From a bacterium (lineage in GTDB: Bacteria > SZUA-182 > DTGQ01): a stretch of DNA of 64,000 bases. The notes under the pieces were generated by a model, which worked only from the letters and a program-made list of their open reading frames with translations, did no database searches and was not told where the DNA came from. Of this stretch, positions 3,452 through 63,789 are shown in pieces (positions within the stretch are counted from its first letter, which is position 1; the number at the start of each line of letters is the position of its first letter). The position numbers and the translations under genes were made by a program. The DNA is taken from contig JBFLZW010000041.1 in NCBI GenBank assembly GCA_040755755.1, positions 2,102 through 66,101 on the forward strand, written 5' to 3'.

Positions 3452-5331
3452 ATTTTCTCCCTGGTAGCTTTTTCGAGGTTGTAAATAACCTGTTCCGCTT
3501 CGGCCAGTAAGCTCTTTCGTGCCCGGCCATTACTGGATGCAGCGGCAAAGCGTGCATAATCGCATTCATCGAGGCAGTGCTGCAGCTGGGTCAATACTTC
3601 CCGCGTTACTCCAAGGGCTTGAAACTGCTCAACCATCTGTTGACTGGTGAGCCCTGCGGCCTGGACATTGAGCTTGTCAGCCGCATATTCGGTCAGAGAT
3701 TTTGAGACCGCAGCATAAAACTCCTTCTCCTCTCCTTTCTTATCGTGAAGGAGTGCCTGGCCAAGTTTTTTTCTGGCCAGCCGGTGTGCCCGCTTCAGCC
3801 GGGCGTACCGCTGATCTCCCTGGAGCTTTTGTGCCCGCCGGTCCATCACAAAACAGGCAAGGAGTACAAGAAGCGGAACCAGAAGGAAACTTAAGAATAC
3901 CTTATTGTCGAAGAAAAATAAATCTTTTTTTAAAAATTTCAGGTCCGTTTTAATATATTGGATATCTCTCCGGGTTAAGGTGACTTCCTGCTGATAAACC
4001 GGTGCCCTGTTTCCGCCGGAAGCGGGAGAGCCTGCCGTAACAGTACGCTGGTCCGGGGCCGCCGGAGCTATTGATACCAGGATAGGATCAGTCGTCAGGG
4101 TATGGTATTTTTCATCCTCCGGATTGAAAAAGGAAAAATGGAGCGATGGAATTTGCAGGTTTCCTGCATTGCGGGGAATCAGGAGAAAGTCAAAGCACTT
4201 TTCACCCTGCAGCTCATTCTGTTTAATCAGATTTTTGGTGCTCGTGGTATCATACTTCTGAAAGCCTTCCAGGGTGGAGAATTCAGGTTCCGGCAGGCTT
4301 TCGATGTAGCCGGCCCCCTTAATCCTGACATGCAGGGTAATGGGCTCGTTTTGAACACCGCTTTTTCGATCCACCTTGGCCGAAAGGGTAAACTTGCCAA
4401 CCGCTCCGCGAAAATCCGCAGGTTTTCCCTTCTCAGGCAGGGGAAGCACCTCGATCGTAATCGGCTCTGTTTTGAGCATCCGGGGGGGTGAAAAGAACCC
4501 TGCCTGATAAGACAGGGTGGCAGGTCCGATGGTGTGCTTTCCCGGACTCATGGGAAAAAGTGCCCGTTTGATTTCCTGAACCCGGTACTGCCTTCCGTCA
4601 ACAACCCTGATATCAGATGTGGCGGGTGCCTCCAGGTCCTCCACCCAGAAACCTTCCAGAGGAGCCTGCTGATAAGAGGGACTTTGCCATAAATCGATCC
4701 GCCGGTAGAAGCCAAAGGTCAGAATAATCTGCTCATTCACATAGGCTTTGGTTTTGTTGACCGTGTTGGTGATAAAAATATTCCCCCGCGCTGGCCGCTC
4801 TTCCGCATCTCCCCACGGATCGGCTGAGCGGGGTGGCAGAGGAGAAGGGGCATATGGCTGCTGAGGAGACCGGGATCGTGAAGAGTCACCTGGTGAAGCA
4901 GCCTGCGATACAGTTACCGTGATCGGCTCAGTCTGATAGGTCCTGCCTTCGTGAGACAGTTTGATGGCTCCAATGGTGAGCTTCCCGGAGGCTTCAGGCC
5001 GCAGGATATATTTTATGGTCTTTGATACGGAGACCTTTCCGTTAATCCAGGAAAAGTTTGATCCCTGGTAGGAGTTGACAACCGAAAAGCCCGGCAGATC
5101 CGGGAGCTCAGGATCGGGAAGAGAGCCGATATTTGAGCCCTCGATAACCACGGACAGGGAGAGGTGGTCATCGAGACTCAATTCGGTCTTATCAACCGAA
5201 GCCTGAATCGAAATGGATTCAGCCCGGGCTGCACCCGCCATGAGGAAGGTACAAAGGACCAGGAATATCAGCGTGGCACTATACCGCCTGGTTTTTTCAG
5301 CCGGCATGCTCCTACCAGTCATATTCGACAT
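3448..5331 (-). CDS. batD: BatD-like oxygen-tolerance protein
   Basis: 627 aa with an N-terminal signal/TM, a large periplasmic beta-rich region and a C-terminal TM plus cytoplasmic tail. It lies between batC and batE as in canonical Bat operons. Confidence 0.65.
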   Translation of the reverse strand: MSNMTGRSMPAEKTRRYSATLIFLVLCTFLMAGAARAESISIQASVDKTELSLDDHLSLSVVIEGSNIGSLPDPELPDLPGFSVVNSYQGSNFSWINGKVSVSKTIKYILRPEASGKLTIGAIKLSHEGRTYQTEPITVTVSQAASPGDSSRSRSPQQPYAPSPLPPRSADPWGDAEERPARGNIFITNTVNKTKAYVNEQIILTFGFYRRIDLWQSPSYQQAPLEGFWVEDLEAPATSDIRVVDGRQYRVQEIKRALFPMSPGKHTIGPATLSYQAGFFSPPRMLKTEPITIEVLPLPEKGKPADFRGAVGKFTLSAKVDRKSGVQNEPITLHVRIKGAGYIESLPEPEFSTLEGFQKYDTTSTKNLIKQNELQGEKCFDFLLIPRNAGNLQIPSLHFSFFNPEDEKYHTLTTDPILVSIAPAAPDQRTVTAGSPASGGNRAPVYQQEVTLTRRDIQYIKTDLKFLKKDLFFFDNKVFLSFLLVPLLVLLACFVMDRRAQKLQGDQRYARLKRAHRLARKKLGQALLHDKKGEEKEFYAAVSKSLTEYAADKLNVQAAGLTSQQMVEQFQALGVTREVLTQLQHCLDECDYARFAAASSNGRARKSLLAEAEQVIYNLEKATREKI

Positions 5332-6217
5332 CTCTTCCTCCTCCTTCTCCGTGCTGCTGCTGCTGCTGCATCAGACGGAGTTGCTCCCGGACCTTTTTTT
5401 CCCGCTCATCCAGGGATTGCAGTATCCTGAGGGCATCCTCTCTGGACATCTTCTGATCTTTCTTGTCCTGGTTCCCGGAATCCGGCTTACTCATGGCCGC
5501 CTCCTGCTGCTGCCGGTTTGGGTCCTGCTGAGCAGATTTTGCCTTTTCCTGCTCGCTGTTCTTTTGATCTTTCCGGTCCTGCTGGTTTCCCTGTTTTTGC
5601 TGGCCTTGCTTATTCTGCTGATCCTGTTTGCCCTGTTGATTCTTCCGGTCTTGCTGGCCCTGCTTGTTTTGTTGGTCCTGTGGGTTTTGCTGTTGATTCC
5701 GGGCCATCTCTTTCAGTTTTCGTTTGGCCAGTTCCAGGTTGAATTTGGCATCCTGGTCATCAGGCTCAAGGCCGAGAGATTTTTCGTACTGCTTGACAGC
5801 TTCGGGAAAATCATTCTGGCGGAATTTACAATTCCCAAGGTTATAGTGGGCTTTGGCCTGCACGGTACGGTCTTTTGACTGGGCCGCCTTGTGGTATTCT
5901 TCCGCTGCCTGCTCGAACTTCTCCTGCTTGAACAAAATATCCCCAATATTGAAATGGAGCACTTCCGATTCAGGATGGTCGAGCTGGGCATCCAGATATT
6001 CTTTTAATGCCTCCTCATACTTCCCCTGAGCATAGAGCTCATTCCCTCGTCTGGTTTTATTGATGAACGGGTTAGTCCAGGCCGTGCAGCAGGGGGCTGC
6101 CATAAAAAACAACATAACCACACAAACCCAAAAGAACAGAGGTGGAAATACCCTGCTCCCCTCTGTGTCTCTGTGTCTCTGTGGTTTCTTTTCCCCAAGG
6201 TACTGGTGATTCCTCAT
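5312..6217 (-). CDS. batC: BatC-like TPR protein with a Q/K/D-rich low-complexity C-terminal region
   Basis: TPR repeats are present (AQGKYEEALKEYLD, HYNLGNCKFRQNDFPEAVKQYEKSL), followed by a long QQNKQGQQDRKNQQ-type repetitive tract encoded by ~30-bp imperfect tandem DNA repeats. The ORF track extends it to 6340. The start at 6217 (MRNHQY) was chosen because it avoids overlap with batB. Confidence 0.55.
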   Translation of the reverse strand: MRNHQYLGEKKPQRHRDTEGSRVFPPLFFWVCVVMLFFMAAPCCTAWTNPFINKTRRGNELYAQGKYEEALKEYLDAQLDHPESEVLHFNIGDILFKQEKFEQAAEEYHKAAQSKDRTVQAKAHYNLGNCKFRQNDFPEAVKQYEKSLGLEPDDQDAKFNLELAKRKLKEMARNQQQNPQDQQNKQGQQDRKNQQGKQDQQNKQGQQKQGNQQDRKDQKNSEQEKAKSAQQDPNRQQQEAAMSKPDSGNQDKKDQKMSREDALRILQSLDEREKKVREQLRLMQQQQQHGEGGGRDVEYDW

Positions 6218-24773: not shown

Positions 24774-24830
24774 TAAGAAGGTAAAAATAAGGTTTAAATA
24801 CACGTGCATCAGAACAGTGAAGAGGAAAAG

Positions 24831-27041
24831 ATGAATCTGAAGACCGAACCGGAACAAAGCATATTGACAAATGAGTTCATCCTGAATAGTCCTCTTGTAC
24901 CAGCATGGGAAGGCAAAGAACCAGGGTTGCAGCAGGAGGATGGAAAATTCCTGGAATTTTCGATTTTCGAGGGGAAGGATTTTTTCAGGAGTGAGCGGTT
25001 CTCCAAGGGAAAGATAATCGTAGGCAAAAGCGAAGAAGCAGACATCATTCTCCAGGGGCGAAATATTTTTGATATCCACGCTTTTTTTTACCGGAACGGT
25101 GATCAGGTTTTTGTATCGGATGGAGATCTTGGCAGCGGTGTTATAGTAAATGGCAGATTTGTATCCTCCCGAGCATTAAATCCTCATGATTTAGTATTCA
25201 TAGGTCCATATACGATCAAAGTTCAGCTAGGCAAAGCTTACAGTCAGCCTTCAGGAGACGATTTTCCGGATACGAATACCGTGACAGTTCAGGCTCCGGA
25301 AGAAGATGATTCCCCGGTGACGGAGATGGATACGGATACGGTTACAACAGGCGAATATAGCAAAAATGAGCCTGATGGAATGCAGGGGATCATCCGATCA
25401 CTGGAAAATGAACCTGACCAGGTTTTTCACGACTATGAGAAGCCGGATTTGACCATACCCCCTGATGTCATGAAAGAGCAGGTTTCACCCGGAATTGAAT
25501 TATCGTGGCATGAGGAGGTAGATTTTTCCCCGACGGGTGAAGATCTGCAAATTTACTCTGATGGAGAATATCCCGATCCAGAGGTTCAAAGAATTGAAGG
25601 CAATAATGTGCCGGAAGAGGATGACCTATCGGATTTTCAATTTGAGCCGTTATTTGCTGATCCTCATCCTGATTCTCAACACGAATTGCAAGAGAAGAAA
25701 AATGAGCCGGAAGACGATTCCGGGAGCGAGAGCTATTACGATGATGCTATCTTATTAACCTTTCCTAGGGCTGAGGACAATGATCAGTCCCATTCTGAGC
25801 CGGTAGTTTTGGAAGTAGAATCGCATGAAGATCCGCGAGTGCCTCACATATTGGAATTAGATGTCAGTGCACAGGCAGAGGCTGACATCCTATCGCAGAG
25901 CAAAAGCAATGAGGTTAGACTAGATGTTCCCAATTTCCCCTTTCTGGATGAGGAGGGTGAAAATAGCCATCACCCCCACCCAACCTCCCCCCTCAAGGGG
26001 GAGGGGAAAGATGGATGTCCTCAGCAAAGATGGGGAACATCTGAGAGTGGACCGGGAACAACAATCCATTCCGAAAATCAGGAAAATCCCCAGGAGGTAT
26101 TAAAGCGGATCATCGATCAAATTTCGAATTTTTCAAGTACCGCTACTGATATACCTGCTATCCCCCAAGGGGAAAGGGACCGGACATTTACTCATCAGGA
26201 AGAGAATGATAAGTATCATGAGGACACTGAGAACCATGCCCTGGAATTTTCAACCCAGAGAGTCCAGGAACCTGGAGTCAGTGCTGGATGGACAGGGATC
26301 GAGGATCGGATTCAACCTCCCGGCATAGGATCGGAAATCGACATCCCGGCTAACCAGGTGAATAGGGAGAATACGTCCCAAGGTTCAGATATCGAACAGG
26401 TAAGAACTGGAATTCGGAGCTTTTTCCCAAAGATCCTTAGTTCAATTGAAATGGTAAAAAGAAAAGTTCAGAGTTTAACTTGTGGCCACATACTTCACAA
26501 GAAACCGGATGAAGCGGGTGATGAAGATGAGGAGATGGAGATAGAGGGAAGGGAGGATTTTGATCAGCCACCGCAACTATTGGCCAGCCAGAGTGCAGGA
26601 GAAGAAGATGATGAGGAGGAGGAAATCCTCCCCAGGATCATATTTCCGATAAAAGAAAGCCTTATGCAGTATCAGCAGCAGGAAACCATTCTGGATCCTG
26701 GCGAGGTAGTGCTTGAAGTATTGAAGTGCCGGGGAGATGATGTAGTCGATATGTGCTTTTTAACCAGGAAGGAGAAATACAGCAGTTTGAATGAATTTGG
26801 CCGGTTTTATGTGGCTGAAAACAAGGATCAGGAAACCTTTTACTTTTATTTTACCGATCAATTCAAGGGCAAAATCCAGTTCAGTGACAGTTATTCTATA
26901 GACATTGAAAGATTATCCATCATTGAAGAGGTATACCGGAAAAAAGGAAGGGTTTACCGGTGTCTGCTCCCGATGAACGGAGTAGTATCCCTGTATGACG
27001 GCAGCTATGACTATTACCTGCGACTCGTCAAGCCCGCTTAA
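24831..27041 (+). CDS. FHA-domain protein with a long acidic disordered linker and an uncharacterised C-terminal domain
   Basis: An N-terminal FHA-like fold is present (IIVGKSEEADIILQGRNIFDIHAFFYRNGDQVFVSDGDLGSGVIVNGRFV...LVFIGPYTIKV). It is followed by about 400 aa of D/E-rich sequence and then a roughly 140-aa conserved-looking C-terminal domain. The ORF track start at 24804 is a GTG. The ATG at 24831 has a GAGGAAAAG Shine-Dalgarno sequence. Confidence 0.7.
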   Translation: MNLKTEPEQSILTNEFILNSPLVPAWEGKEPGLQQEDGKFLEFSIFEGKDFFRSERFSKGKIIVGKSEEADIILQGRNIFDIHAFFYRNGDQVFVSDGDLGSGVIVNGRFVSSRALNPHDLVFIGPYTIKVQLGKAYSQPSGDDFPDTNTVTVQAPEEDDSPVTEMDTDTVTTGEYSKNEPDGMQGIIRSLENEPDQVFHDYEKPDLTIPPDVMKEQVSPGIELSWHEEVDFSPTGEDLQIYSDGEYPDPEVQRIEGNNVPEEDDLSDFQFEPLFADPHPDSQHELQEKKNEPEDDSGSESYYDDAILLTFPRAEDNDQSHSEPVVLEVESHEDPRVPHILELDVSAQAEADILSQSKSNEVRLDVPNFPFLDEEGENSHHPHPTSPLKGEGKDGCPQQRWGTSESGPGTTIHSENQENPQEVLKRIIDQISNFSSTATDIPAIPQGERDRTFTHQEENDKYHEDTENHALEFSTQRVQEPGVSAGWTGIEDRIQPPGIGSEIDIPANQVNRENTSQGSDIEQVRTGIRSFFPKILSSIEMVKRKVQSLTCGHILHKKPDEAGDEDEEMEIEGREDFDQPPQLLASQSAGEEDDEEEEILPRIIFPIKESLMQYQQQETILDPGEVVLEVLKCRGDDVVDMCFLTRKEKYSSLNEFGRFYVAENKDQETFYFYFTDQFKGKIQFSDSYSIDIERLSIIEEVYRKKGRVYRCLLPMNGVVSLYDGSYDYYLRLVKPA
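25922..26043 (+). mobile_element. MITE-like repeat copy (family with AGATGTTCCCCATCT termini) embedded in-frame in the FHA-protein CDS
   Basis: It shares about 120 bp of collinear similarity with the intergenic copy at 38984..39129. The shared parts are the left end AGATGTTCCCAAT, the CATCACCCCCACCCA...CCTCAAGGGGGAGG core and the right end AAGATGGGGAACATCT. Confidence 0.55.
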
Positions 27042-27205: not shown

Positions 27206-27523
27206 ATGGCTCCAATAGAATCTGTTTTAAATGAGATAGTGCGCAGAATCGTTGAAACTGTGCATCCAAAAAGAATTATTCTTTTTGGATCTGCTGTTCG
27301 AGGAAATATGGGACCTGACAGCGATCTGGACCTGCTCATTGTTGTATCATCGGGTGAGCATCGACGTAAGACAGCGCAGAAAATTTATAGAAATCTAATC
27401 GGCGTAGGTTTTGCAACCGATATCGTTGTGGTTACAGAAGGTGATCTGGAAAATTATAAAGATTGTATCGACCTGGTAATCCAACCGGCCCTCGAAGAAG
27501 GGAGAGTGCTCTATGCTGCGTGA
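27206..27523 (+). CDS. nucleotidyltransferase (MNT-type antitoxin) of a HEPN/MNT toxin-antitoxin pair
   Basis: The Pol-beta-like NTase motif GSAVRGNMGPDSDLDLL is present in a 105-aa protein that overlaps the following HEPN gene. Confidence 0.85.
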   Translation: MAPIESVLNEIVRRIVETVHPKRIILFGSAVRGNMGPDSDLDLLIVVSSGEHRRKTAQKIYRNLIGVGFATDIVVVTEGDLENYKDCIDLVIQPALEEGRVLYAA

Positions 27524-27926
27524 TCCGGGTGATTACCGTAATCCACATGAATGGATCAAAAGAGCAAAAAGTAATCTTATCCGTGCCCGGCAGCCTAAAG
27601 TGGAGGGGATATTATGGGAGGACCTTTGTTTTGACACTCAGCAGGCTGTGGAAAAGGCATTGAAAGCAGTGCTCTTGTCGCGGGGCATACGGTTTCGGTT
27701 TGTTCATGATATTGCTGAGCTGCTGACGATCCTTGAAAAACATGCTATTCACTTGCCTGATGAGATACGGGCCGCCGCCGGGTTGACCGATTATGCAGTG
27801 GAAACCAGATATCCGGGCACGGCTGAACCGGTTACCGAGGAGGAATTCAAAGAAGCACTCAGGACTGCTGAAGCAGTAGTCGTCTGGGCTCAGAGTTTGA
27901 TTGACGGCCCATCCTGCCAGAAGTGA
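27513..27926 (+). CDS. HEPN-domain protein (toxin partner)
   Basis: 137 aa with an Rx4H motif (RFRFVH). It overlaps the NTase gene by 11 bp, which is the typical HEPN/MNT module arrangement. Confidence 0.8.
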   Translation: MLRDPGDYRNPHEWIKRAKSNLIRARQPKVEGILWEDLCFDTQQAVEKALKAVLLSRGIRFRFVHDIAELLTILEKHAIHLPDEIRAAAGLTDYAVETRYPGTAEPVTEEEFKEALRTAEAVVVWAQSLIDGPSCQK

Positions 27927-35315: not shown

Positions 35316-35588
35316 TTTGTTGCATAGTAGATATGTTTATGGAAAGGGAGAGAGATTGTTACTGTGATCCATGGGGAACATAAGCGCCATAGATCCCCAC
35401 GCCCGTGGGGAACATTTTCAGGATACCGTGCAAAAGATCTAGGCTGTGTATCAGATGTTCCCCATCTTGTATGAGAGGCTGTCTGAAAAATAAGTGGGGG
35501 TATCTTTGAGGTGATTTATAAGTAGGACTGCTCCGAAATAAGGTGTAAGAGTAGTACATCGATAAACCTTACGTGGAGCAGCCCCAAG

Positions 35589-35891
35589 ATGGCAAGAAAA
35601 GCATATCCTCCAGACCTTACGAGCATTGAATTGGTTGATACTATGGGATTAGTTCTGATGGTGGTTGTGCCCGCTGCCAATATTCAAGATCGGGATGGAG
35701 CAAAGTTAGTGCTCGAAAAGGTTCTTGGACGATTCCCTCGGCTAAAACTGATCTGGGCCGATGGTGGTTATTCTGGAAAGTTGATTGATTGGGTCAGGGA
35801 ACAATGCCAGTGGGTCTTGGAAATAGTCAAACGATCTGATCAGTCCAAAGCGGCTGCCGCCGTACAGGATGATAATTGGCCGTGTAGTTAG
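35589..35891 (+). pseudogene. IS5-family (DDE_Tnp_1) transposase C-terminal fragment (decayed IS remnant)
   Basis: 100-aa ORF ending ...LKLIWADGGYSGKLIDWVREQCQWVLEIVKR, which is the C-terminal DDE region of IS5-type transposases. The N-terminal two-thirds is missing. Downstream sequence continues the transposase tail out of frame. Confidence 0.6.
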
Positions 35892-36275: not shown

Positions 36276-36692
36276 ACGAAATATCCCTCCTTTCATAACT
36301 GTTTCTTAAGTTGGGATGTTTCTGTAAAGCTCAGGAAAAGCTATAGGCTCCCATAGTTTCAGATAACCTATCCACAACTTAATGCGCCCCCCCAAGAGAA
36401 AACTTACCTTATTTAGATAATCTCCATCCCAGAGGCAACTGTTTCTAAGAATTTAAGAATACACTAATGAGATTTTATTGTCAAGGAATTTTTATTTCTC
36501 TTATTTGATGTCCAAAATTTTTGTAAGATTTTATGATACATTTTTTGCTTTCTGTCACTTATATTTCGCTATTTCATTGAAAATGAGTAGAAACCAGGCT
36601 TGACCGTAACTACTCAGATACAAAACTTGACAGCAATAAACCAGGCTTCCTCTGTGACAGGTGAGGGGCCAGCATGTTTGCCTTATCATACA

Positions 36693-36731
36693 CCCCCTCA
36701 CCCCGACCCTCTCCCCAAAGGGGCGAGGGAG
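36693..36731 (+). repeat. GC-rich REP-like hairpin repeat (CCCTCACCCCGACCCTCTCCCCAAAGGGGCGAGGG)
   Basis: It contains the palindromic core CCCTCTCCCC-AAA-GGGGCGAGGG. An inverted near-copy lies at 62107..62149, and a related core sits inside the MITE-like elements. Confidence 0.6.
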
Positions 36732-36991
36732 AAAAACACTACTCCTCAGCTTGCCAATATGAATTCCACCTCTGCGCCTCTGCGTCTCTGCGGGAGATCA
36801 TTCTTCCATGTCTCATTGTACTAACCGGCCATGATTACAAAATGCCACTTTGAAATGAGCAGGATTTATTCATATTATACGATAAATAGATGTCAGATTG
36901 AGGTAGGGAGTTCCCGCCACAGGGGCTCCCTGAAGGTAACAGGGGATGTCGGGTGGGGGTGATTTTTGTCGAGAGGAAGGTTATCGGAAAA

Positions 36992-37918
36992 ATGGGAATT
37001 ACTGAAACAGACGAAGGGAAAAAGGAATCTCTTGAGATACTCGACTCTGGAGACGGTTTTTCAGAATCGGGGGATTTGATTCAGAAAGCGCGCCTGCCCT
37101 GGGTCGCCGGTCTTTTAACCCTGTTTGTAATCGGGCTGGGGCAGGTCTATAACGGTGAGTTAATGCAGGGGATCCGATATTACCTGGGGTCATTCGGGTT
37201 GAGCCTGCTGGCAGCCTTTTTGATCCTTTTCCTCCCCTTTCCCCTGAATCTTATGACCCTCACCCTGGGCTTTATTTACTTTATCTATATCTTTCGGATA
37301 AGCTGGAAGACAGCGAAAAGCAAAGGGAGCAATTACTGTCTGAAGCCATACAACAAGTCTTCTGTCTATATCATCTTTATTTTCCTCAGCTGGTACGTTA
37401 TCAATCCCCTGTTCTCTCAAATCACCAAGGATAATATCGTTCATGCCTATCGGGTAGTGGCCACTTCCATGCTGCCCACCATTCTGGATGGTGACCATAT
37501 TCTGGTAAATGAGCTGGTTTACAAGTTTGCTCATCCGCAAAGGCTTGATGTGGTCGTGTTTAAATATCCCAAGAACGAGAGCCAGTATTTCATCAAGCGG
37601 ATTATCGGTCTTCCGGGAGAAACAATCTGGATCCACCGTAAACAGTGCTACATCAACGGACGGCGAGTTCAGGAAAAGTACATAATTCACGCAGGGAATC
37701 AGGTGGCAAATTATCCTGAGCTGGATAATTTCGGACCCTTGACCGTCCCGCCTGATTCTTTTTTTGTCATGGGCGATAACCGGGACTGGAGCATGGACAG
37801 CAGAACATTCGGACCGGTCAAAAGATCAAAAATCCTCGGCAAGGCATTTATGATCTATTGGCCCGGTGCCCTTCACGGGCAGACAATCTGGCACCGGATC
37901 GGAAAAAAGATCCGTTAA
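36992..37918 (+). CDS. lepB: signal peptidase I
   Basis: It has an N-terminal TM region, a catalytic Ser box (VATSMLPTI) and a Lys box (KRIIGLPGE), then GDNRDWSMDSR. The ORF track starts at GTG 36953. The ATG at 36992 was preferred. Confidence 0.85.
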   Translation: MGITETDEGKKESLEILDSGDGFSESGDLIQKARLPWVAGLLTLFVIGLGQVYNGELMQGIRYYLGSFGLSLLAAFLILFLPFPLNLMTLTLGFIYFIYIFRISWKTAKSKGSNYCLKPYNKSSVYIIFIFLSWYVINPLFSQITKDNIVHAYRVVATSMLPTILDGDHILVNELVYKFAHPQRLDVVVFKYPKNESQYFIKRIIGLPGETIWIHRKQCYINGRRVQEKYIIHAGNQVANYPELDNFGPLTVPPDSFFVMGDNRDWSMDSRTFGPVKRSKILGKAFMIYWPGALHGQTIWHRIGKKIR

Positions 37919-38070
37919 ATGCCTCCTTCTGGAAAGCAGGAAGGTTTTTTCAGTTGGCCACTGGTTTTAGCATGAGATAGTGGTGGGGCAAAAAAGTGCC
38001 CCACCCTCCGGTTCATTCTATTCCTCTCTGGTCACGGTCGATGAACGCGCCGTGAGATCCGGCCGCGATC

Positions 38071-38919
38071 TCAAGCCATTCTCTCCAACCGGGCAATTCT
38101 GTCTTGAAGCGGCGGATGGGTACTGAAGAGCGCCTGAAGTCCTCCGCCGTGCAGCGGGTTAATGATAAACATATGAGCAGTGGAGGGGTTGGCCTGCATT
38201 GGAACAACCCGGTTTCCCCGTTCGAGTTTGCGCAGGGCATTGGCCAGCCAGAGCGGGTGGCCGCTTATCTTTGCCCCCTCTTCATCAGCCATATATTCAC
38301 GGGACCGTGAGATAGCCATCTGAATCATCGCGGCGGCAATCGGAGCAAGGATCATCATCACCAGGGCGGCAAGAGCGTTTCCTCCTCCCCTGCGGTCGCG
38401 GTCACCGCCTCCCATTCCTCCGAAGATGAATGCCCATCTGGCCATTGAGGCCAGCATGGTAATAGCCCCGGCTATGACAGCGGCAATAGTGCTGATCAGG
38501 ATATCCCGGTGTTTGACATGCGACAGCTCATGGGCCAGCACCCCGGCCAGCTCATCGCGGTCGAGAATCCTGAGAATACCCGAAGTGACCGCCACGGCGG
38601 CATGCCTCGGATTTCTTCCCGTAGCAAAAGCATTGGGAGTATCCTGGGGGGTGATGTATATCCGCGGCATGGGAAGGCCGGCCTTTCTGGTCAGTGTTTC
38701 CACGATATCGTACAGCTCCGGTGCCTGCTCCCTGCCGACCTCCTGAGCCCGGTACATTGCCAATACAATCTTGTCACTGAACCAGTATGTGCCGACATTC
38801 ATGACGAGCGCCAACACGAAAGCCATAATCAATCCCTGTTCGCCACCTATGGCATTACCTGCAAGAACCAGCAGTACTGTCAGTAAAACCATCAAAAACG
38901 TTGTCTTGATTGAATTCAT
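38071..38919 (-). CDS. htpX: protease HtpX (M48 family zinc metalloprotease)
   Basis: It has 2 N-terminal TM helices, an HELSH zinc motif and a Gly-rich loop, and shows HtpX-like sequence throughout. Confidence 0.9.
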
Positions 38920-38983
38920 AGAGGTTCAACCTCCTTTCCTCAATGACCTCATTATATTTTATATTCAAGGGGATGCGGTTGTC

Positions 38984-39129
38984 TAAAGATGTTCCCCATC
39001 TTCCTTATTCTTAACGAGGATGGTAAAAATAACCATCACCCCCACCCAGCCTCCCCTGCCACAGGGGCTCCCTGCCTCAAGGGGGAGGAGTGGAAGGGAT
39101 GTTCCCATCAAAGAAGGGGAACATCTGAA
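38984..39129 (+). mobile_element. MITE-like element with terminal inverted repeats AGATGTTCCCCATCT / AGATGGGGAACATCT
   Basis: It is a ~145-bp intergenic element between htpX and fmt, with perfect 15-bp terminal inverted repeats and a GC-rich core (CATCACCCCCACCCAGCCTCCCC...CCTCAAGGGGGAGG). Related copies lie at 25922..26043 and, degenerate and inverted, at ~36886..36995. Confidence 0.6.
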
Positions 39130-40090: not shown

Positions 40091-40179
40091 CGTATTGGTT
40101 CCTCCTTATTCTCCCTTCCCCCTCCCCTGCCTGTCGCTTCTTCCATATCAGGAACTCCCCGCTCCACTCTTCTGCTTTT

Positions 40180-40257
40180 CTCTGTGTACCTCTGTGCCTC
40201 TGTGTCTCTGTGGTGTCCTTTGTCTTTGTCTCTGTTTTTGCCTTTGTCTTTACTCCC
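40180..40257 (-). repeat. dispersed repeat family with (CACAGAG)3-4 heptamer core and an A-rich flank; copy between def and fmt
   Basis: The sequence GACACCACAGAGACACAGAGGCACAGAG plus an A-rich ACAAAG flank is present. Near-identical copies lie at 43824..43882 and 59897..59955. A shorter copy lies at 6161..6184 and a CTCTGCG variant at 36769..36793. Confidence 0.7.
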
Positions 40258-43823: not shown

Positions 43824-43882
43824 AAATAAATAAAATACAAATACCAATACCAACGACACCACAGAGGCACAGAGACACAGAG
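43824..43882 (+). repeat. copy of the (CACAGAG)n repeat family between uppP and ftsK
   Basis: The sequence AAATAAATAAAATACAAATACCAATACCAACGACACCACAGAGGCACAGAGACACAGAG is present. Confidence 0.7.
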
Positions 43883-43933
43883 ATACCCGGAGAAAAGACA
43901 GGGAGTAATGTATTCATAGACAGCTCCATAACC

Positions 43934-44998: not shown

Positions 44999-47900
44999 AT
45001 GCGCGAAAAATCTGAGGGCAGGAAAAAGATATTGTGTCTTGGGATTGACATCGGATCGATCAGCGTCGACTTTGCCCTCGTTAACCAGGATCGTGAGATT
45101 ATCAGGACTTCCTATCACCGGGTCAAAGGACAGCCTATTCTCAAGACCCTTGAAGTGCTGGAGAAAGAGTTTGCCGATTTTCTGGCCGAAGATTCCATCA
45201 GCCTGTCGTTTACCGGGACCGGCGGACTGATCCTGAGCCATCTGCTGGATACGTTCTTTATCAATGAAATCATCGCCCAGATGAAAGCGGTCATCCTGCT
45301 TCATCCCGAGGCCAGAACCATTATCGAAATCGGCGGCGAGGATTCCAAACTCATTCTGCTCGACTACCAGCAGTCCTCACAATCTCTGGTCCTGAAGGAT
45401 TTTGCCATGAATACCATGTGCGCTGCGGGTACCGGCTCTTTTCTCGACCAGCAGGCTTCGCGGCTCGGCATCTCGATCGAGGAAGAGTTCGGCGAACTGG
45501 CCATGAAGTCGAAAAACCCGGCCCGTATTGCCGGGCGGTGCAGCGTTTTTGCCAAATCGGATATGATCCACCTCCAGCAGGAGGCCACCCCGGACTATGA
45601 CATCATTGCCGGGCTGTGCATGGCTATGGCCCGAAACTTCAGGGGAAGCATCGGCAAGGGGAAGGAGTTCCAGAAGCCCATTCTCTTTCAGGGAGGAGTT
45701 GCCGCCAATAAGGGCATGGTGAGGGCGTTTGAGACGCTTTTCAAGCTCGCTCCGGGAGAGTTGATCATCCCGAAGTACTATAACTGCATGGGCGCTATCG
45801 GAGCTGCCCTGGTCGCGCTCGAAACCCCGAAATTCATCAGGGGAAGGAATGTCCTGAAAACGATAGCCGATTATTTGAACCAGGACCGCTATCAGGAATC
45901 CCACCTGCCGCCGCTGCACGCTGGCAAGCCCCCGTCTTCGGGAAAACGCCCTGCGGATGCGGGAAAACCATCCGGGGCAGGGAACGGCCAGAGCGGGAGA
46001 GACGCAAAGCCGATTCCGGCCTTTCTGGGAATCGACGTCGGCTCGATCAGTACCAATGTGGTAGTGATCGACAGCAACAAAAAGGTCCTGGCAAAAAGAT
46101 ACCTGATGACTGCCGGACGCCCGATCGAAGCGGTCCGCACGGGGCTTGATGAAGTCGGGCGGGAGCTCCAGGACCGGGTCAGAATCTGCGGAGTGGGCAC
46201 CACCGGATCGGGAAGATACCTGATCGGGGATTTCGTGGGGGCCGATATCATCAAAAACGAGATCACCGCCCAGGCCAAGGCCGCGGCAGCCATTGACCGG
46301 CAGGTCGATACTATCTTCGAAATCGGCGGCCAGGATTCCAAGTACATCAGCCTCGATCAGGGTGCGGTCGTGGATTTCGAGATGAATAAGGTGTGCGCTG
46401 CCGGAACCGGCTCTTTCCTGGAAGAGCAGGCGGAAAAGATCGGCATCAATATCAAGGAGGAGTTCGGAAACCTGGCCCTCTGTGCTTCCGCTCCCGTAAG
46501 GATGGGGGAGCGCTGTACCGTATTCATGGAGTCTGACCTTGTCCACCATCAGCAGAGCGGTGCCGCCAAGGAGAACCTGGTGGCCGGTCTCAGCTATTCG
46601 ATCGTTCATAACTACCTGAACCGCGTGGTGGCCGGACGCAGGGTTGGAAACCGGATATTCTTCCAGGGCGGAGTGGCAGCCAATAAAGGCGTGGTCGCTG
46701 CCTTCGGGCAGGTCCTGCAAAAGCCGGTGATCGTTCCCGAACACCACGAAGTTACCGGGGCCATCGGCGTGGCCCTGATCGCCCAGGAGGAGCAGACCTG
46801 GACCCAGAGCAAATTCCGGGGATTTGATCTGAGCCACCGCCGCTATGAAATCGAGAGCTTTGAATGCGCAGGATGCGCCAATCACTGCCAGATTAAAAAG
46901 GTCGTGCTCGATCAGGACCGGCCGCTTTTCTACGGCAGCCGGTGTGACCGCTACGATGAAAAAAAAGGAGAAAAACTCTCCGCCCATCCCCTCGATCTGT
47001 TTGCCTTCCGGTCACAGGAGCTTCACCGGCAGTACCTGACTCCAGCCGGGGATTCATCTTCTTCCAGCGCGCCTCGCACAAAGATAGGTATCCCCTTATG
47101 CCTGTTCTTTCACGAGTGGCTTCCCTTCTGGCGGACCTTCTTTACGGCCCTGGGGCTTGAAGTCATCCTCTCTCAGGCAACGAACAAGGAGATCATCAAC
47201 CAGGGGGTACAGGCGGCTGTGGACGATACCTGCTTTCCCATCAAGGTGGCCTATGGACATATCCATAACCTCCTCCGGCAAAAGGTCGATTATCTCTTTT
47301 TGCCCAGCATCATCAACATGCCAACCGAGCAGAACGGTATCCATGACAGTTTCAACTGTCCCTACGTCCAGACGATTCCCTACACCGCCGCCGCGGCTAT
47401 CAATATCGAACAGAGCGGGACAAAGCTTCTGCGGCCTGTGGTATACCTGCGAAGAGGACTGAAATCTATCCGCAAAAGCCTCATCCCCCTTGGCCGAAGC
47501 CTGGGAAAATCCGCGGCGGACACCGGAAAAGCCATTGACCGGGCTTACGCTGCCCAAAGCTCCTTCCATGCCGCCCTCCAAAAAAAGGGAGAAGAGATTA
47601 TCAGCACACTCCCGGAACAGGAGAAGGCAATGGTCCTGATCAGCCGGCCCTACAATGGCTGCGATTTCGGGCTGAATCTGGAGATTCCCAGAATTTTTCG
47701 CGAAATGGGCTTTCTGATCATTCCGATGGACTTTCTGCCGCTCCACCAGAACCAGATCGCCGAAAACTGGCCCAATATGTACTGGCGCTACGGGCAAAGA
47801 ATCCTGAGCGCTGCCCGGTTTATCCGAACACGGGCAAACTTGTATGCCATCTACCTGACGAATTTCAGCTGCGGCCCTGATTCGTTCATCACCCAGTTTT

Positions 47901-49291
47901 TCCAGCACACGATGAGTGGAAAGCCCTACCTGCAGATCGAGGTTGACGAGCACAGCGCCGGTGCCGGAATAATCACCCGCTGTGAAGCCTTTGTCGATAG
48001 TCTGCGAAGCCGGCAGCGGCAGCAGGCTGTGGCCGGTGATATGCCTGAAACCGTGATGTGCCGGACGGTCTCTTCAAATTCATGCCGGAAGGATACCTAT
48101 TCTCACCGCAAGCTCTACATTCCCCCCATGGCCGGACATGCCCATGCCCTGTGTGCCGCCTTCAGATCCCAGGGAATAATGGCCGAGGTCATACCGGAGT
48201 CCGACGAGCAGACCCTGCAGTATGGCCGGATGTACACCTCCGGCAAGGAGTGCTTTCCCTGCCTGGTAACAACCGGCGACATGGTAAAAATCACCCGTTC
48301 ATCCCAGTTCGATCCTGAAAAGAGCGCCTTTCTCATGCCTTCCGGCGATGGTCCCTGCCGGTTCGGGCAGTACTATCAGCTGCACCGGCTGGTCCTCGAC
48401 CGCCTGGGTCTTCCCGAAGTGCCAATCTATTCTCCGAGTCAGGGGGAAACTTTTTACCGTGAGCTGGGGATCATGGGGAGAAAGTTTATTCGTCTTGCCT
48501 GGCAGGGGATCGTTATTACCGACTACCTCGAAAAGTGGCTTCTGCAAAACCGGCCCTATGAAAGCTCTCCCGGGGAGGCAGACCGGATTTATAACCAATG
48601 CCTGTCCCTGCTCTGCCAGACTATCGAAACTCAAGGGGCTGCCTTTCCGGTTATCGGGCAGATCCTGCGGATCCTCGGCGAATTTCGCCGGGAGCCGAAA
48701 ACACAGCGGCCAATCATCGGTATTGTGGGCGAGATTTTTGTCAGGTCCAACCGCTTCAGTAACAACGACCTGATCCGCAGAATCGAAGCCCTCGGCGGGG
48801 AGGTCTGGATGCCGCCAATTACCGAGTGGTTCCATTATATCAATTACACCAGCAAGATTCACAGCCTGGTCAATCAGAATCTGAAAAACCTGCTTTCGAC
48901 CATGATCCGGGATATTCTGCAAAAGAAGGACGAGCGCAAAATTCACCGCCTGCTCTGCCCGGCCATTCTCGACGGAAAAGACCCTTCGATCGAGCAGCTC
49001 CTCGATAACAGCCGCCCCTACCTGCATTCCTCCTTCGAGGGTGAGGCCATCCTGAGCATTGGCAAGGCCATAGATTATGCCGCTAAAAACATGGACGGAT
49101 TGATCAATGTCATGCCCTTCACCTGCATGCCGGGAACCATCGCTTCCACGATCATGAAACGAGTGCGGATGGACTACCGCGATTTTCCTTTCCTGAACCT
49201 GGCGTATGACGGCCTCGAGCAAACCTCCATCAAGACCCGGCTGGAGGCATTCCTGTACCAGGCCCGGCAATTCCAGGAAAAGGCGCGGTAA
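44999..49291 (+). CDS. CoA-substrate-specific enzyme activase fusion (two BadF/BadG/BcrA/BcrD-type ATPase domains plus a 2-hydroxyacyl-CoA-dehydratase-like DUF2229 domain)
   Basis: Two ASKHA ATPase repeats are present (LGIDIGSISVDFAL...CAAGTGSFL; LGIDVGSISTNVVV...CAAGTGSFL), followed by a Cys-containing dehydratase-like C-terminal half. The protein is 1430 aa. Confidence 0.85.
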   Translation: MREKSEGRKKILCLGIDIGSISVDFALVNQDREIIRTSYHRVKGQPILKTLEVLEKEFADFLAEDSISLSFTGTGGLILSHLLDTFFINEIIAQMKAVILLHPEARTIIEIGGEDSKLILLDYQQSSQSLVLKDFAMNTMCAAGTGSFLDQQASRLGISIEEEFGELAMKSKNPARIAGRCSVFAKSDMIHLQQEATPDYDIIAGLCMAMARNFRGSIGKGKEFQKPILFQGGVAANKGMVRAFETLFKLAPGELIIPKYYNCMGAIGAALVALETPKFIRGRNVLKTIADYLNQDRYQESHLPPLHAGKPPSSGKRPADAGKPSGAGNGQSGRDAKPIPAFLGIDVGSISTNVVVIDSNKKVLAKRYLMTAGRPIEAVRTGLDEVGRELQDRVRICGVGTTGSGRYLIGDFVGADIIKNEITAQAKAAAAIDRQVDTIFEIGGQDSKYISLDQGAVVDFEMNKVCAAGTGSFLEEQAEKIGINIKEEFGNLALCASAPVRMGERCTVFMESDLVHHQQSGAAKENLVAGLSYSIVHNYLNRVVAGRRVGNRIFFQGGVAANKGVVAAFGQVLQKPVIVPEHHEVTGAIGVALIAQEEQTWTQSKFRGFDLSHRRYEIESFECAGCANHCQIKKVVLDQDRPLFYGSRCDRYDEKKGEKLSAHPLDLFAFRSQELHRQYLTPAGDSSSSSAPRTKIGIPLCLFFHEWLPFWRTFFTALGLEVILSQATNKEIINQGVQAAVDDTCFPIKVAYGHIHNLLRQKVDYLFLPSIINMPTEQNGIHDSFNCPYVQTIPYTAAAAINIEQSGTKLLRPVVYLRRGLKSIRKSLIPLGRSLGKSAADTGKAIDRAYAAQSSFHAALQKKGEEIISTLPEQEKAMVLISRPYNGCDFGLNLEIPRIFREMGFLIIPMDFLPLHQNQIAENWPNMYWRYGQRILSAARFIRTRANLYAIYLTNFSCGPDSFITQFFQHTMSGKPYLQIEVDEHSAGAGIITRCEAFVDSLRSRQRQQAVAGDMPETVMCRTVSSNSCRKDTYSHRKLYIPPMAGHAHALCAAFRSQGIMAEVIPESDEQTLQYGRMYTSGKECFPCLVTTGDMVKITRSSQFDPEKSAFLMPSGDGPCRFGQYYQLHRLVLDRLGLPEVPIYSPSQGETFYRELGIMGRKFIRLAWQGIVITDYLEKWLLQNRPYESSPGEADRIYNQCLSLLCQTIETQGAAFPVIGQILRILGEFRREPKTQRPIIGIVGEIFVRSNRFSNNDLIRRIEALGGEVWMPPITEWFHYINYTSKIHSLVNQNLKNLLSTMIRDILQKKDERKIHRLLCPAILDGKDPSIEQLLDNSRPYLHSSFEGEAILSIGKAIDYAAKNMDGLINVMPFTCMPGTIASTIMKRVRMDYRDFPFLNLAYDGLEQTSIKTRLEAFLYQARQFQEKAR

Positions 49292-55294: not shown

Positions 55295-55836
55295 GTTGAG
55301 TTTGGCATGCCATTTGCATTAATGAACGTGGTAACGAAATAAATGCCCAGACCGGGGAGCTTCAACATGGCGGTGAATTGTGGGGGATGTTCGAAAACAT
55401 ATTGGAGCCCTTCCGGCCACGACAACTGAAGCGGAAAATCTGATTATTGCGAATTGTGAACGGTAATTTTCTCTGGTGACTGCGAACAAACTACTTGCGG
55501 AGCTTCGACTACACACGACAAATCCTATGACTGCTGGGTGAATGCTGCTGCTCACGAGGTATGGGAACTTTGCTCTCTGATCTGGGCTTTTATTACTGTC
55601 ATGGCACTGTTATGAGTGATTGTTGCCAGAGCCGACAGGAATTCTGCACTCAAATCTTGCTGGGCGGAATCCGGAAAGAGCGTGGCCGGCGTGCCCCTGT
55701 TGTGGACTGGCCTTCCAGAATCTGTATAAATTTTTACCAGGCACGATAGTGAGCTCGTCTCTCAGATCGAGGTATAGTATCTATATGTAATATTTATTCA
55801 TAACTTATACTAATTAATAACTATTTTAGCTTTATT

Positions 55837-55936
55837 TCTCCTGACTTCTGGCTCCTGATTTCTGACTTCCGGTTTCTGACTCCTGACTTCGCTCTCCTGA
55901 CCACGGACCATTGACTTTTGGCTCCTGACTCCGGGC
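55837..55936 (+). repeat. tandem heptamer/14-mer repeat array (CTCCTGA CTTCTGG)n upstream of the wza promoter
   Basis: It consists of 14 consecutive 7-bp units with TGA/TGG at fixed phase (ctcctga cttctgg ctcctga tttctga cttccgg tttctga ctcctga ...). Confidence 0.8.
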
Positions 55937-56006
55937 TTGGATCTCCTTAACTTGTAATTTACTAAATTTTACAATAAGTTTCTTACATAGCTGTCTGAAA
56001 AACTAG

Positions 56007-56247: not shown

Positions 56248-57249
56248 ATGAGAATGCTAACTATACTTATATTTATGCCTATGCTCCTGAAGGTCGGCTT
56301 ATTTTCCTGGGCTAGAGCTTGCTTTTTCTTCTCTGTTCAATTAAGGCGTCTGGCAGCGGTTCTCTTTTCCCTGGTTATCACCTGCCTTATCTCATCATCT
56401 TCCATCTCCATAGAGTTGAAGGATTATTCTATAGGTCCTCAGGATGTTTTAAAAATCGAGGTCTGGGATAATCCCGATTTATCGAGGGAAGTGACGGTCT
56501 CATTGAAAAATACCATTTCCTTCCCGCTGATAGGAGAAATGCAGGTTGAAGGGTATACCGTAGAGAATCTCCAGCAGAAGATCCGGACCCGTCTGGCAGA
56601 TGGTTATCTGGTTAATCCCCAGGTTACGGTAACGGTCAAGGAATATAACAGCAAAAAGGTTTATGTGCTGGGAGAGGTCGAGAAGCCCGGCTATTATCCC
56701 TTCTCCAAAGTAACCACCATGGTCGAGATCATCTCGATGGCTGGCGGACTTACTCCCGATGCCGGGCAGGAAGCTTATATTATCCGGTCTCCGGAGAAAA
56801 TTGACCCTGACGATATCAAACACCTCATTCAGGGAGGAAAAAACGACCTTCCCTCCGAAACTGCAATCAACAGCTCAAACACCATCCCCGGCAAGGGTTC
56901 TGCATCCGAGGGTGCAGTCAAAAACCAGGTTATTACTCTTAACCTGAACGACTTTAATCAGGGCATCAATCTCAATTTCGAGCTTCAGAATAATGATACT
57001 CTCTACATTCCCAAGGCCCAGTTTTTCTATGTGATTGGGGAAGTGAAATCTCCCGGACGGTTCAAGCTGGAAAAAGAGGTTAATGTACTGCAAACCATCT
57101 CGATGGCAGGCGGGCTTACTCAGAAGGCCAGTGAAAGAAAGATCAGGATCATCAGGACCCTGGATGGCAAGGAGCATGAGATAAAAGCCAAAATGACGGA
57201 TCTGGTTTTGCCGGATGACATAATCAAGGTTCCTGAGAGTTTCTTTTGA
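56248..57249 (+). CDS. wza: polysaccharide export outer-membrane protein (Wza/Poly_export + SLBB domains)
   Basis: The Poly_export motif IGPQDVLKIEVWDNPDL is present, followed by two SLBB-like repeats (...ISMAGGLT... twice). The exact start is uncertain. Confidence 0.85.
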   Translation: MRMLTILIFMPMLLKVGLFSWARACFFFSVQLRRLAAVLFSLVITCLISSSSISIELKDYSIGPQDVLKIEVWDNPDLSREVTVSLKNTISFPLIGEMQVEGYTVENLQQKIRTRLADGYLVNPQVTVTVKEYNSKKVYVLGEVEKPGYYPFSKVTTMVEIISMAGGLTPDAGQEAYIIRSPEKIDPDDIKHLIQGGKNDLPSETAINSSNTIPGKGSASEGAVKNQVITLNLNDFNQGINLNFELQNNDTLYIPKAQFFYVIGEVKSPGRFKLEKEVNVLQTISMAGGLTQKASERKIRIIRTLDGKEHEIKAKMTDLVLPDDIIKVPESFF

Positions 57250-57431
57250 ATTTAGCTGTTTATCCATCAAAGTTTATCTCCTCATAAGTTATATCTCAAG
57301 GTTTGGGTTTTCCCTTTCAGCATCACCATGCAGCGTTTTATTTGAAGTATGTATGTGCAGGAATAATTGTCGGTGTGGTTGTATGGCCGGGTTATCATTG
57401 CATCAGGTAACTCACAGGGCGAAGCTATTTT

Positions 57432-57503
57432 CAGGAGTCAGAATCCAGAAGTCAGAAGTCAGGAGAAGAGGATTGCTTATTCTGACTCCTGACTCCTGAC
57501 TCC
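57432..57503 (+). repeat. inverted array of the same heptamer repeat (AGTCAGA/TCTGACT) forming a long imperfect palindrome between wza and wzc
   Basis: The sequence CAGGAGTCAGAATCCAGAAGTCAGAAGTCAGGAG ... TTCTGACTCCTGACTCCTGACTCC is present. Confidence 0.75.
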
Positions 57504-57566
57504 AGGGTACGATATAGTTCAAACTTAAGGATAGTTGCCACAATCAGTATAGGGGAATACTTATCT

Positions 57567-59896: not shown

Positions 59897-59955
59897 AAAA
59901 TACGAAATACAAAATGAAAATACAAAGGACACCACAGAGACACAGAGGCACAGAG
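59897..59955 (+). repeat. copy of the (CACAGAG)n repeat family between wzc and rfbD
   Basis: The sequence AAAATACGAAATACAAAATGAAAATACAAAGGACACCACAGAGACACAGAGGCACAGAG is present. Confidence 0.7.
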
Positions 59956-59981
59956 AAAAGCGAAGATAGATCAGGGAGATC

Positions 59982-62059: not shown

Positions 62060-62106
62060 GTATAATCCCTCCCCGTGGAGGGCACCCTCATCTCGTGGAA
62101 AATACA

Positions 62107-62149
62107 CTCCCTCGCCCCTTGGGGGAGAGGGTTGGGGTGAGGGGGATGG
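62107..62149 (-). repeat. second copy of the GC-rich REP-like hairpin repeat, between rfbB and rfbA
   Basis: The sequence CTCCCTCGCCCCTTGGGGGAGAGGGTTGGGGTGAGGGGGATGG is the reverse complement of the 36693 copy, with a few substitutions. Confidence 0.6.
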
Positions 62150-62205
62150 CAGTTAGCAGGGTTTGGGGAAGGATTTTCGTCAGGAAGGAAGGATAAGGAA
62201 GGATT

Positions 62206-63099: not shown

Positions 63100-63194
63100 A
63101 CGTTTTCCGTACGTTAGATGTTCCCCATCTTGTATAGAAGTATCCAATACACTATAATGATACAAGCAGTGGAGAACTTTCCAGGAGGCAAGCT

Positions 63195-63416
63195 ATGAAA
63201 CAGGATATAAAAATCACTTCTCAGCACGAGCAAAGCCTTGTTGAGAAGATCCGCAGTCTTTCGCCTGAGAGGATTGCCGAGGTGGAAGACTTTATTGACT
63301 TCCTGTGTCAGCGCGACCTGGATCATCGTCTGACCCAATCGGCTGCCAGGCTCTCTGAACCAGCATTTCAAAAGGTATGGGATAATCCTGACGATGCAGA
63401 CTATGATCAGCTATGA
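63195..63416 (+). CDS. putative type II antitoxin
   Basis: 73-aa ORF overlapping the start of the downstream MazF/PemK-like toxin. Its own sequence is not diagnostic. Confidence 0.5.
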   Translation: MKQDIKITSQHEQSLVEKIRSLSPERIAEVEDFIDFLCQRDLDHRLTQSAARLSEPAFQKVWDNPDDADYDQL

Positions 63417-63759
63417 ATTTGGTGATGTTGTCCTTGTCCCGTTTCCTTTCACCGATCAGTCAGTCAGCAAAAAACGCCCGGCCATAGTCGTCAGCTCCAG
63501 CGCTTATCACCGGGAGCGTCAAGATATTGTCCTCATGGCGGCGACGAGCCAGATAAAACCATCGGCATCTTTTGGCGAAGTTACGATCGCTCAATGGGAG
63601 CAAGCCGGTCTCCTTAAACCATCAGTAATTAAGCCGATCTTTACCACGATCGAGAAGCTGCTTGTCTTGAGAAAGCTCGGAAGGCTCGATAAACGAGACA
63701 GGCGGAATCTTCAAGAGAGCCTTCGAGAGATTCTGGGCGAAGACGATGGTCACGGTTAA
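63403..63759 (+). CDS. MazF/PemK-family toxin (mRNA interferase-like)
   Basis: The sequence MISYEFGDVVLVPFPFTDQSVSKKRPAIVVSS is the PemK/MazF N-terminal signature. The ORF track start is 63394. Confidence 0.7.
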   Translation: MISYEFGDVVLVPFPFTDQSVSKKRPAIVVSSSAYHRERQDIVLMAATSQIKPSASFGEVTIAQWEQAGLLKPSVIKPIFTTIEKLLVLRKLGRLDKRDRRNLQESLREILGEDDGHG

Positions 63760-63789
63760 CCAGGTAAGTTTAGTAGGATAGGAAAGAGC

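Follow-up and report, generated by a model that had tools for sequence, protein, structure and literature searches.

The window analysed here, a 64-kb (64,000-nucleotide) stretch of bacterial DNA, is ordinary chromosome containing groEL, a sigma factor gene, comEC, ftsK, def-fmt, lolA and rfb genes. Pfam and translation identified the genes next to the repeat described below as htpX, fmt, lepB, a DDE_Tnp_1 remnant, a PemK/MazF toxin, a DUF2281 antitoxin, rfbA and rfbC, in agreement with the names given in the initial annotation. That annotation had also proposed a dispersed repeat family with inverted termini and with full, partial and solo members. Such a family is present, with five full or degenerate copies (A to E) and two end fragments (s1 and s2) in the 64-kb window, and elements with the same ends found elsewhere show 9-bp target duplications.

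The termini occur far above chance. In the window, the 15-mer AGATGTTCCCCATCT had six matches with two or fewer mismatches (0.20 expected), the extended 17-mer CAGATGTTCCCCATCTT had five with three or fewer mismatches (0.40 expected) and the 20-mer of the solo sites had five with three or fewer mismatches (0 expected). The 15-bp terminal palindrome described initially is interrupted (AGATG-N5-CATCT) and is contained in the true 17-nt terminal inverted repeat, CAGATGTTCCCCATCTT, which forms both ends of copy A and the right end of copy B. The ends are accordingly one base longer than first described (C-AGATGTTCCCCATCTT ... AAGATGGGGAACATCT-G). Elements measure 123 and 142 nt in the window and 119-144 nt among the metagenome sister elements. 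The interior of the window subfamily is G+C-rich and three of its six reading frames are open. No ORF of the element matched a transposase, the open frames encoding low-complexity peptide only, and a search with Rfam at gathering thresholds returned no match anywhere in the window.

Copies in the window

Copy A (38986..39127, plus strand) is a full element of 142 nt in the spacer that separates the fmt stop (39140) from the htpX start (38919); the full copy initially placed at 38984..39129 in this spacer is thereby retained with corrected coordinates. Its left end, AAGATGTTCCCCATCTT, occupies 38986..39002 and its right end, the reverse complement of CAGATGTTCCCCTTCTT, occupies 39111..39127, with AGATG at 38987 and CATCT ending at 39126. 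The copy abuts the -35 of htpX predicted by the promoter scan. Copy B (25921..26043, plus strand) is a full element of 123 nt that lies in frame in the FHA-domain ORF 24804..27041 (745 aa), one base longer than the in-frame copy reported at 25922..26043. Its right end is a perfect 17-mer (26027..26043) and its left end, TAGATGTTCCCAATTTC, is eroded. The two copies are collinear over their whole length and not only over the 15-bp ends, with identities of 77% over 73 nt, 81% over 54 nt and 90% over a 41-nt core. A palindromic insert of 19-23 nt (~39053..39075) is found in copy A and is absent from copy B. Both copies form a fold closed by the two ends (for copy A, z = -3.7 and -4.3). The organism is represented in Logan assemblies at 100% identity. 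Two of its contigs there, spanning 36785..39054 and 36785..39041, break off within copy A and within another short repeat, as would be predicted for a sequence present in several copies.

The extra segment of copy A, CCCCTGCCACAGGGGCTCCCTGC (39053..39075), is a small palindrome and a separate mini-repeat. It also occurs inverted inside copy C (36916..36932) and is 23/23 identical in two metagenome contigs (L124 8465..8487 and L141 978..1000).

The FHA protein carrying copy B is identical to MEW6380536.1. A further in-frame copy is held by MEW6380988.1 (P0006), encoded on another contig of the same MAG. This 937-aa, PKS-like protein combines ketoreductase, carrier-protein, reductase and GMC-oxidoreductase parts, and its copy (residues 463-511) lies in the linker after the acyl-carrier domain, in the same reading frame as copy B, with an element peptide of 62% identity over 68 residues. 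The 123-nt element together with 9 duplicated nucleotides adds 132 nt, or 44 codons, and preserves the reading frame. Two copies persist inside genes because this footprint is a multiple of three and three frames of the element are open. Insertions into disordered protein linkers would thus survive as in-frame 44-residue insertions, an outcome seen twice. A protein search with an alignment of the element peptide gave only six word-sharing candidates, none of which scored. In an orthologue of the FHA protein (P0002, 36% identity) the linker is too divergent for an empty-site comparison, and the end is absent from the contig of this orthologue. The FHA gene is immediately followed by a second toxin-antitoxin-like pair, a nucleotidyltransferase with a HEPN protein (27206..27926).

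Three further copies are eroded. Copy C (36887..37004, minus strand) is degenerate and inverted, and corresponds to the partial copy noted at ~36886..36995 over the lepB upstream region. It shares ATCACCCCCACCC and the CAGGGGCTCCCTG palindrome; its eroded left end, CAGTAATTCCCATTTTT, is present as the reverse complement at 36988..37004, and no significant fold was obtained for this copy. Both candidate starts of lepB fall inside copy C, ATG 36992 in the eroded end and GTG 36953 in the body, and gene calls on the Logan contigs likewise place the lepB start there. The translation start of this essential gene may therefore come from copy C. Gene callers use GTG 36953. ATG 36992 is preceded by GAGAGGAAGG and is the ATG of the eroded end, in which ATGGGGAACATCTG became ATGGGAATTACTG.

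Copy D (62085..62201, minus strand) is degenerate and fills the rfbB-rfbA intergenic region, with a conserved interior and eroded ends. Copy E (36647..36751, plus strand), also degenerate and without recognisable ends, lies upstream of copy C. Local alignment of copy D with copy B scored 54, where shuffles reached at most 35, and with copy A it scored 46, where they reached at most 42; copy E scored 48 with copy B (shuffle maximum 37). The conserved core of D and E is a 39-nt repeat homologous to the A/B interior (37/43, score 43, shuffle maximum 23).

Several other repeats were recorded. A G+C-rich short repeat, CCCCCTCACCCC(G/A)ACCCTCTCCCC..GGGGCGAGGGAG, occurs at 36688..36734 and 62107..62145 and, at 85-90% identity, in a contig of metagenome sample Ga0315268 (L139 7108..7155). 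It is homologous to the A/B interior (37/43) and is either a unit captured by the MITE or the interior relics of copies D and E. Arrays of (C/T)CTCTG(T/C)G stand at gene ends (6161..6192, 36769..36801, 40167..40246, 43833..43905 and 59912..59978). The array variant CCTCTGCGCCTCTGCGTCTCTGCGGGAGATCATTCTTCC at 36770..36810 recurs with 91-97% identity in four Ga0315268 contigs (L132, L136, L138 and L139), so the metagenome organism shares a short-repeat repertoire with the MAG. Inverted CTGACT(T/C) heptamer-like arrays (55836..55942 and 57431..57513) flank ORF 56248..57249. Inside the 1430-aa ORF 44999..49291, a 106-nt direct repeat of 75% identity (45397..45502 and 46372..46477, 975 nt apart) is probably an internal domain duplication.

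Sister elements and 9-bp target duplications

Metagenomes were scanned with a query consisting of the two ends only (AGATGTTCCCC-N92-122-GGGGAACATCT). Of 29 loci recovered, 20 carry elements of 119-144 nt with the 17-nt ends of the window family, 19 of them from Ga0315268 and one from Ga0315282; apart from L131, the remaining loci are long palindromes or coding-sequence coincidences. Each of the 20 sister elements has the 17-nt repeat at both termini, in a few cases with 1-3 substitutions at inner positions, and all 20 are intergenic. Their interior is unrelated to that of the window copies (TTGACAGGATAACAGGAT ... ATCCTGTTATCCTGTCAA), and at locus L131 the same ends enclose a third, unrelated interior.

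Direct duplications were found immediately outside the terminal C...G of the sister elements. They are perfect (9/9) in 13 of the 20, 8/9 in two and 7/9 in one, and the target sequence differs each time (for example TGGCCGAGT, TGGTCAATA and GAGTTTATA). These clean 9-bp duplications belong to sister elements of another organism and not to the source genome. In the window, the target-site duplications for which the initial annotation had suggested a search are at best suggestive. The flanks of copy B, AGGTTAGAC (25912..25920) and AGAGTGGAC (26044..26052), are identical at 6/9 positions (binomial p ~0.01), the match falling at exactly the predicted 9-mer positions, while those of copy A, GGTTGTCTA and AAGTTGCTG, match at 3/9 and show no clear duplication. 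Such poor flank matches indicate that the window copies are old, in agreement with their ~20% divergence and with the eroded state of copies C, D and E.

Two of the metagenome loci hold nested or broken copies resembling those of the window. At L123, a sister copy is directly followed by a partial second end, GGGAACATCTG (336..350), and at L137 an IS5-like end, AGGCTATCCGAAAAGTCC, truncates a sister copy (3418..3472) to 55 nt.

Other searches returned little. A metagenome scan requiring the interior ATCACCCCCACCC together with the right end gave 0 matches. Scanning viral contigs with the 15-mer gave 89 single matches, approximately the chance level; two contigs with an extended 15-mer match (L073 and L077) were set aside, as the matches look like coding sequence in an A+T-rich contig. 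The 18-mer AGATGTTCCCCATCTTGT had 21 single matches, mostly coding, in unrelated taxa of a genome collection that does not include the source genome, again at chance level. The element and the sister-family end gave nothing relevant in BLAST searches of plasmids and phages, and the end sequences met only unrelated primer matches in full-text literature.

Terminal inverted repeats, a duplication of fixed length, small size and the lack of coding capacity assign the repeat to the MITEs. Most likely it is an old, decaying MITE family of ~120-145 nt with 17-nt ends that was mobilised in trans, and the solo sites are broken copies. The family is previously undescribed but is otherwise a typical MITE. 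A DDE-type transposase encoded elsewhere would recognise the 17-nt ends in trans, excise or copy the element, and insert it via a staggered cut that duplicates 9 bp. Subsequent decay would have left copies A and B with both ends, eroded copies C, D and E, and reduced others to the solo ends, as fragments of copies otherwise lost. Pfam detected no intact transposase among the window ORFs, and no transposase with matching ends was found in the window (39 ORFs) or in the fetched metagenome loci; mobilisation in trans is for this reason what we infer rather than observe.

Identical ends enclose at least three different interiors, one of which is in turn a dispersed short repeat of another kind. 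It is conceivable, though on balance doubtful, that some undescribed transposase uses the 17-nt end as a portable handle and has repeatedly recruited unrelated interiors in related uncultured bacteria, and that the 123-nt subfamily is gene-tolerant, seeding the 44-residue linkers and providing lepB with its ribosome-binding site and start codon.

Solo ends beside accessory DNA

The first solo end, s1 (35452..35474, plus strand; CAGATGTTCCCCATCTTGTATGA), contains the 20-mer at 35453..35472. Its presence upstream of an IS5 remnant had been described correctly, with a position (35458..35477) that required adjustment. The remnant (35475..35860, plus strand) derives from an IS5-family (IS1031/IS427-like) element, truncates s1 and stands outside the repeat family. 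Its left end, GAGGCTGTCTGAAAAA, occupies 35475..35490 and begins 2 nt past the 20-mer, the junction reading ...CATCTTGTA TGA GAGGCTGTCTGAAAAA.... An internal deletion has fused the orfA start (ATG 35589, MARKAYPPDLTSIE) to a DDE segment of orfB, and the 3' end is missing. The homologues of the remnant are two-ORF IS5-family elements (DUF4096 orfA, DDE_Tnp_1 orfB). Intact relatives (L113, GAGCGTGTCTAAAAA, with target duplication TTA; L115 and L116, TTA|GAGGGTGTTTTTGAAA) have ends reading GAG(C/G)(G/C)TGT.. after TTA, and the IS duplication is 3 bp (TNA). The solo end s1 is thus demonstrably the terminal fragment of a copy that was cut by an IS5-family insertion at a TGA target.

Since the remnant has its own end at 35475, the 20-mer is not the end of that IS. 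The suggestion of an IS with the motif as its ends accordingly fails for this neighbour, whose relatives duplicate 3 bp (TNA) as opposed to the 9 bp of the repeat family. Another candidate for the IS end, GGACTGCTCCGAAATAAGG at 35526, was ruled out by the ends of the relatives. The 3' junction of the remnant, CAGTCCAAAGCGGCTGCCGCCGTACAGGATGATAATTGGCCGTGTAGTTA (35841..35890), matches a Ga0315268 contig (L139 3462..3511) with 80% identity over 50 nt; it is possibly the end of a further repeated or mobile element by which the IS was cut short.

Two partial end-core matches on the minus strand, ATGTTCCCCAT (35371..35381) and ATGTTCCCCA (35406..35415), point away from s1. They are direct partial copies 34 nt apart, upstream of a 1308-aa multihaem cytochrome ORF. 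Matches to the half-site GGGGAACAT number eight in the window against 0.86 expected, and the two here are real, lying at 35373..35381 and 35407..35415 in place of the ~35385 and ~35413 first reported. They are probably relics of further copies. Their spacing is too close for chance and is not explained by the MITE account. The ATGTTCCCCA match also overlaps a perfect palindrome, CCCCACG-CC-CGTGGGG (~35394..35409).

The second solo end, s2 (63115..63157, plus strand), is flanked by the rfbA stop (63099) and the antitoxin start (63195) and consists of TAGATGTTCCCCATCTTGTAT followed by ~22 nt weakly resembling the right end of copy A; over 43 nt it is 72% identical to that end. The 20-mer was correctly placed at 63116..63135, 5' of the MazF-type toxin-antitoxin cassette. 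At s2 and in the DNA after the IS remnant, no interior sequence of either subfamily is retained, and the body of the s2 copy would have been lost. The two solos share ~22 nt only and are unrelated downstream. They are identical over 20 nt, whereas copies A and B are only ~80% alike, and their common TTGTAT tail differs from the A/B subfamily and from the metagenome subfamily. The 20-nt identity could reflect either selection on the motif or a younger third subfamily; the solos probably belong to such a third, younger subfamily, the full form of which was not seen.

The location of both solos beside accessory DNA had suggested that the 20-mers are functional, either as recombination or insertion targets or as the borders of a larger unit on which the IS/csp region and the MazF-type cassette arrived. 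Their 20/20 identity despite the divergence of the full copies, and the landing of the IS right beside s1, speak for this explanation, and at L137 an IS5-like end similarly abuts a truncated sister element. These two insertions lend anecdotal support to the notion of an insertion hot spot. Delivery of cargo is contradicted by several observations. Neither the cassette (63136..63789) nor the IS/csp region is bordered by a further motif in either orientation, and no inverted partner is present on the far side of the cassette or of the IS remnant; the sequences downstream of the solos are unrelated past ~22 nt; and the rfbA-TA-rfbC layout is identical in three Logan contigs of the organism from other sequencing runs. 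The IS, moreover, has a different end of its own and relatives with 3-bp duplications, and the motif is the end of a transposon making 9-bp duplications. A functional role of the solo 20-mers is consequently improbable. The association with accessory cassettes reflects broken copies of the MITE in junk-rich spacers and not a delivery mechanism.

The tail of the s2 20-mer, CTTGTAT, forms an inverted repeat with ATACAAG 24 nt downstream (63125..63164), bracketing a perfect TATAAT. This pair could be the operator of the toxin-antitoxin system. The arrangement TTGTAT-17-TATAAT was considered as a promoter and is not called by the promoter scan.

Relation to known repeat families

A slightly less probable explanation than functional solo sites holds that the motif is a protein-binding or regulatory site, such as an operator for a dimeric regulator on AGATG-N5-CATCT, and that the copies are domesticated structural RNA or DNA modules acting, for example, as terminator, promoter or mRNA-stability element. 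The end is indeed an interrupted palindrome, three core sites fall within 95 nt upstream of the cytochrome ORF, and the last hexamer of s2 (TTGTAT) stands 17 nt upstream of the perfect TATAAT ahead of the antitoxin gene. Copy A, which folds strongly, separates the fmt stop from the predicted htpX promoter, and promoters and RNase sites contributed by MITEs are on record (PMC10969869). Against this reading, the promoter scan calls no promoter at s2, copies are present inside coding sequence, no Rfam family matches, and the sister elements, at unrelated intergenic sites, are flanked by target duplications, a feature not generated by binding sites. Regulatory side-effects are possible; they would be compatible with, and secondary to, a transposon origin.

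REP sequences moved by RAYT transposases are imperfect palindromes of 20-40 nt with a conserved 5' tetranucleotide, the RAYT gene being flanked by REPs; 9-bp duplications are a hallmark of DDE transposition, and REP/REPIN elements have none. It is very improbable that the family represents REPIN-like doublets of REP moved by such a RAYT (IS200/IS605-type Y1) transposase, with the solos as REP singlets: the ends are small hairpins in themselves, a full element has a short spacer between its two inverted ends, and singlets occur together with doublets, but 9-bp duplications are present, the end hairpin has a stem of only 5 bp, the interiors (85-110 nt) are much longer than REPIN spacers, and no Y1 transposase domain was detected among the window ORFs scanned with Pfam.

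A decaying MITE family, by comparison, has close counterparts in other bacteria, where partial copies, clusters and nested insertions are normal for MITEs (PMC10969869). The closest documented analogue is MITEAba12 of Acinetobacter, a small, non-coding element of 113 bp with short (16-bp) inverted repeats, a 9-bp target duplication and an interior unrelated to its own or any other IS, as in a 'type II' MITE (PMC6382973). It is mobilised by ISAba12 (IS5 family/IS903 group), and its transposition has been observed experimentally (PMC6382973). Like the window family, MITEAba12 is mostly intergenic and can affect neighbouring genes (PMC6382973). Its ends, GGCTTTGTTGCACAAA, are wholly different, its parent is known, and the window copies are by contrast old and eroded.

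For copies inside genes the closest analogue is the in-frame insertion typical of Rickettsia palindromic elements, RPEs (PMC10969869). RPEs, QMITE1 of Coxiella and the Anabaena MITEs are palindromic elements of ~100-150 bp that form in-frame peptide insertions, as here (PMC10969869, PMC5896051). RPEs have no sequence relationship to the window family, whose host is of a different, free-living lineage, and they lack the clear terminal repeats and duplications that the window family has. In-frame RPE insertions number dozens, as opposed to the two cases here (the FHA protein and P0006), both in linkers. The Correia/NEMIS elements of Neisseria resemble the window family in being dispersed, ~100-155 bp long, bounded by terminal inverted repeats, strongly inclined to form hairpins and accompanied by many partial copies, and both occur beside promoters and gene ends. 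Correia elements have 26-bp ends and duplicate a TA dinucleotide, whereas the window family has 17-nt ends and a 9-bp duplication.

With respect to the parent transposase, Tn10 and Tn5 (IS10 and IS50, IS4 family) make a 9-bp target duplication, and the IS4 (IS10-like) transposase is a DDE enzyme with a YREK signature. Elements of the IS5/IS903 group, IS256 and ISLre2 also duplicate 8-9 bp. The IS10 outside end, CTGATGAATCCCC, a sequence contained in PMC3159471 and PMC2705183, resembles CAGATGTTCCCC in its C.GATG start followed by a CCCC run; identity to the family end is ~10/17, with the CCCC run offset by one base. No transposase of the IS4 type was found. Based on the 9-bp duplication and this loose resemblance, the IS4 family may be regarded as a candidate lead to the parent and not as a claim of membership. 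The Ga0315268 sister family, which is young, with perfect 9-bp duplications and closely similar copies, would offer a good handle for finding the transposase.

The finding matters mainly for annotation and leaves the current understanding of bacterial transposons unchanged. A single MITE family accounts for the spurious ORFs between htpX and fmt, the 44-residue insertions in the FHA and PKS-like proteins, the uncertain lepB start and the breaks in assembly, and the proposal that a motif-bounded unit brought in the toxin-antitoxin cassette falls away. With its in-frame copies, the family provides a free-living case of RPE-type selfish DNA inside genes.
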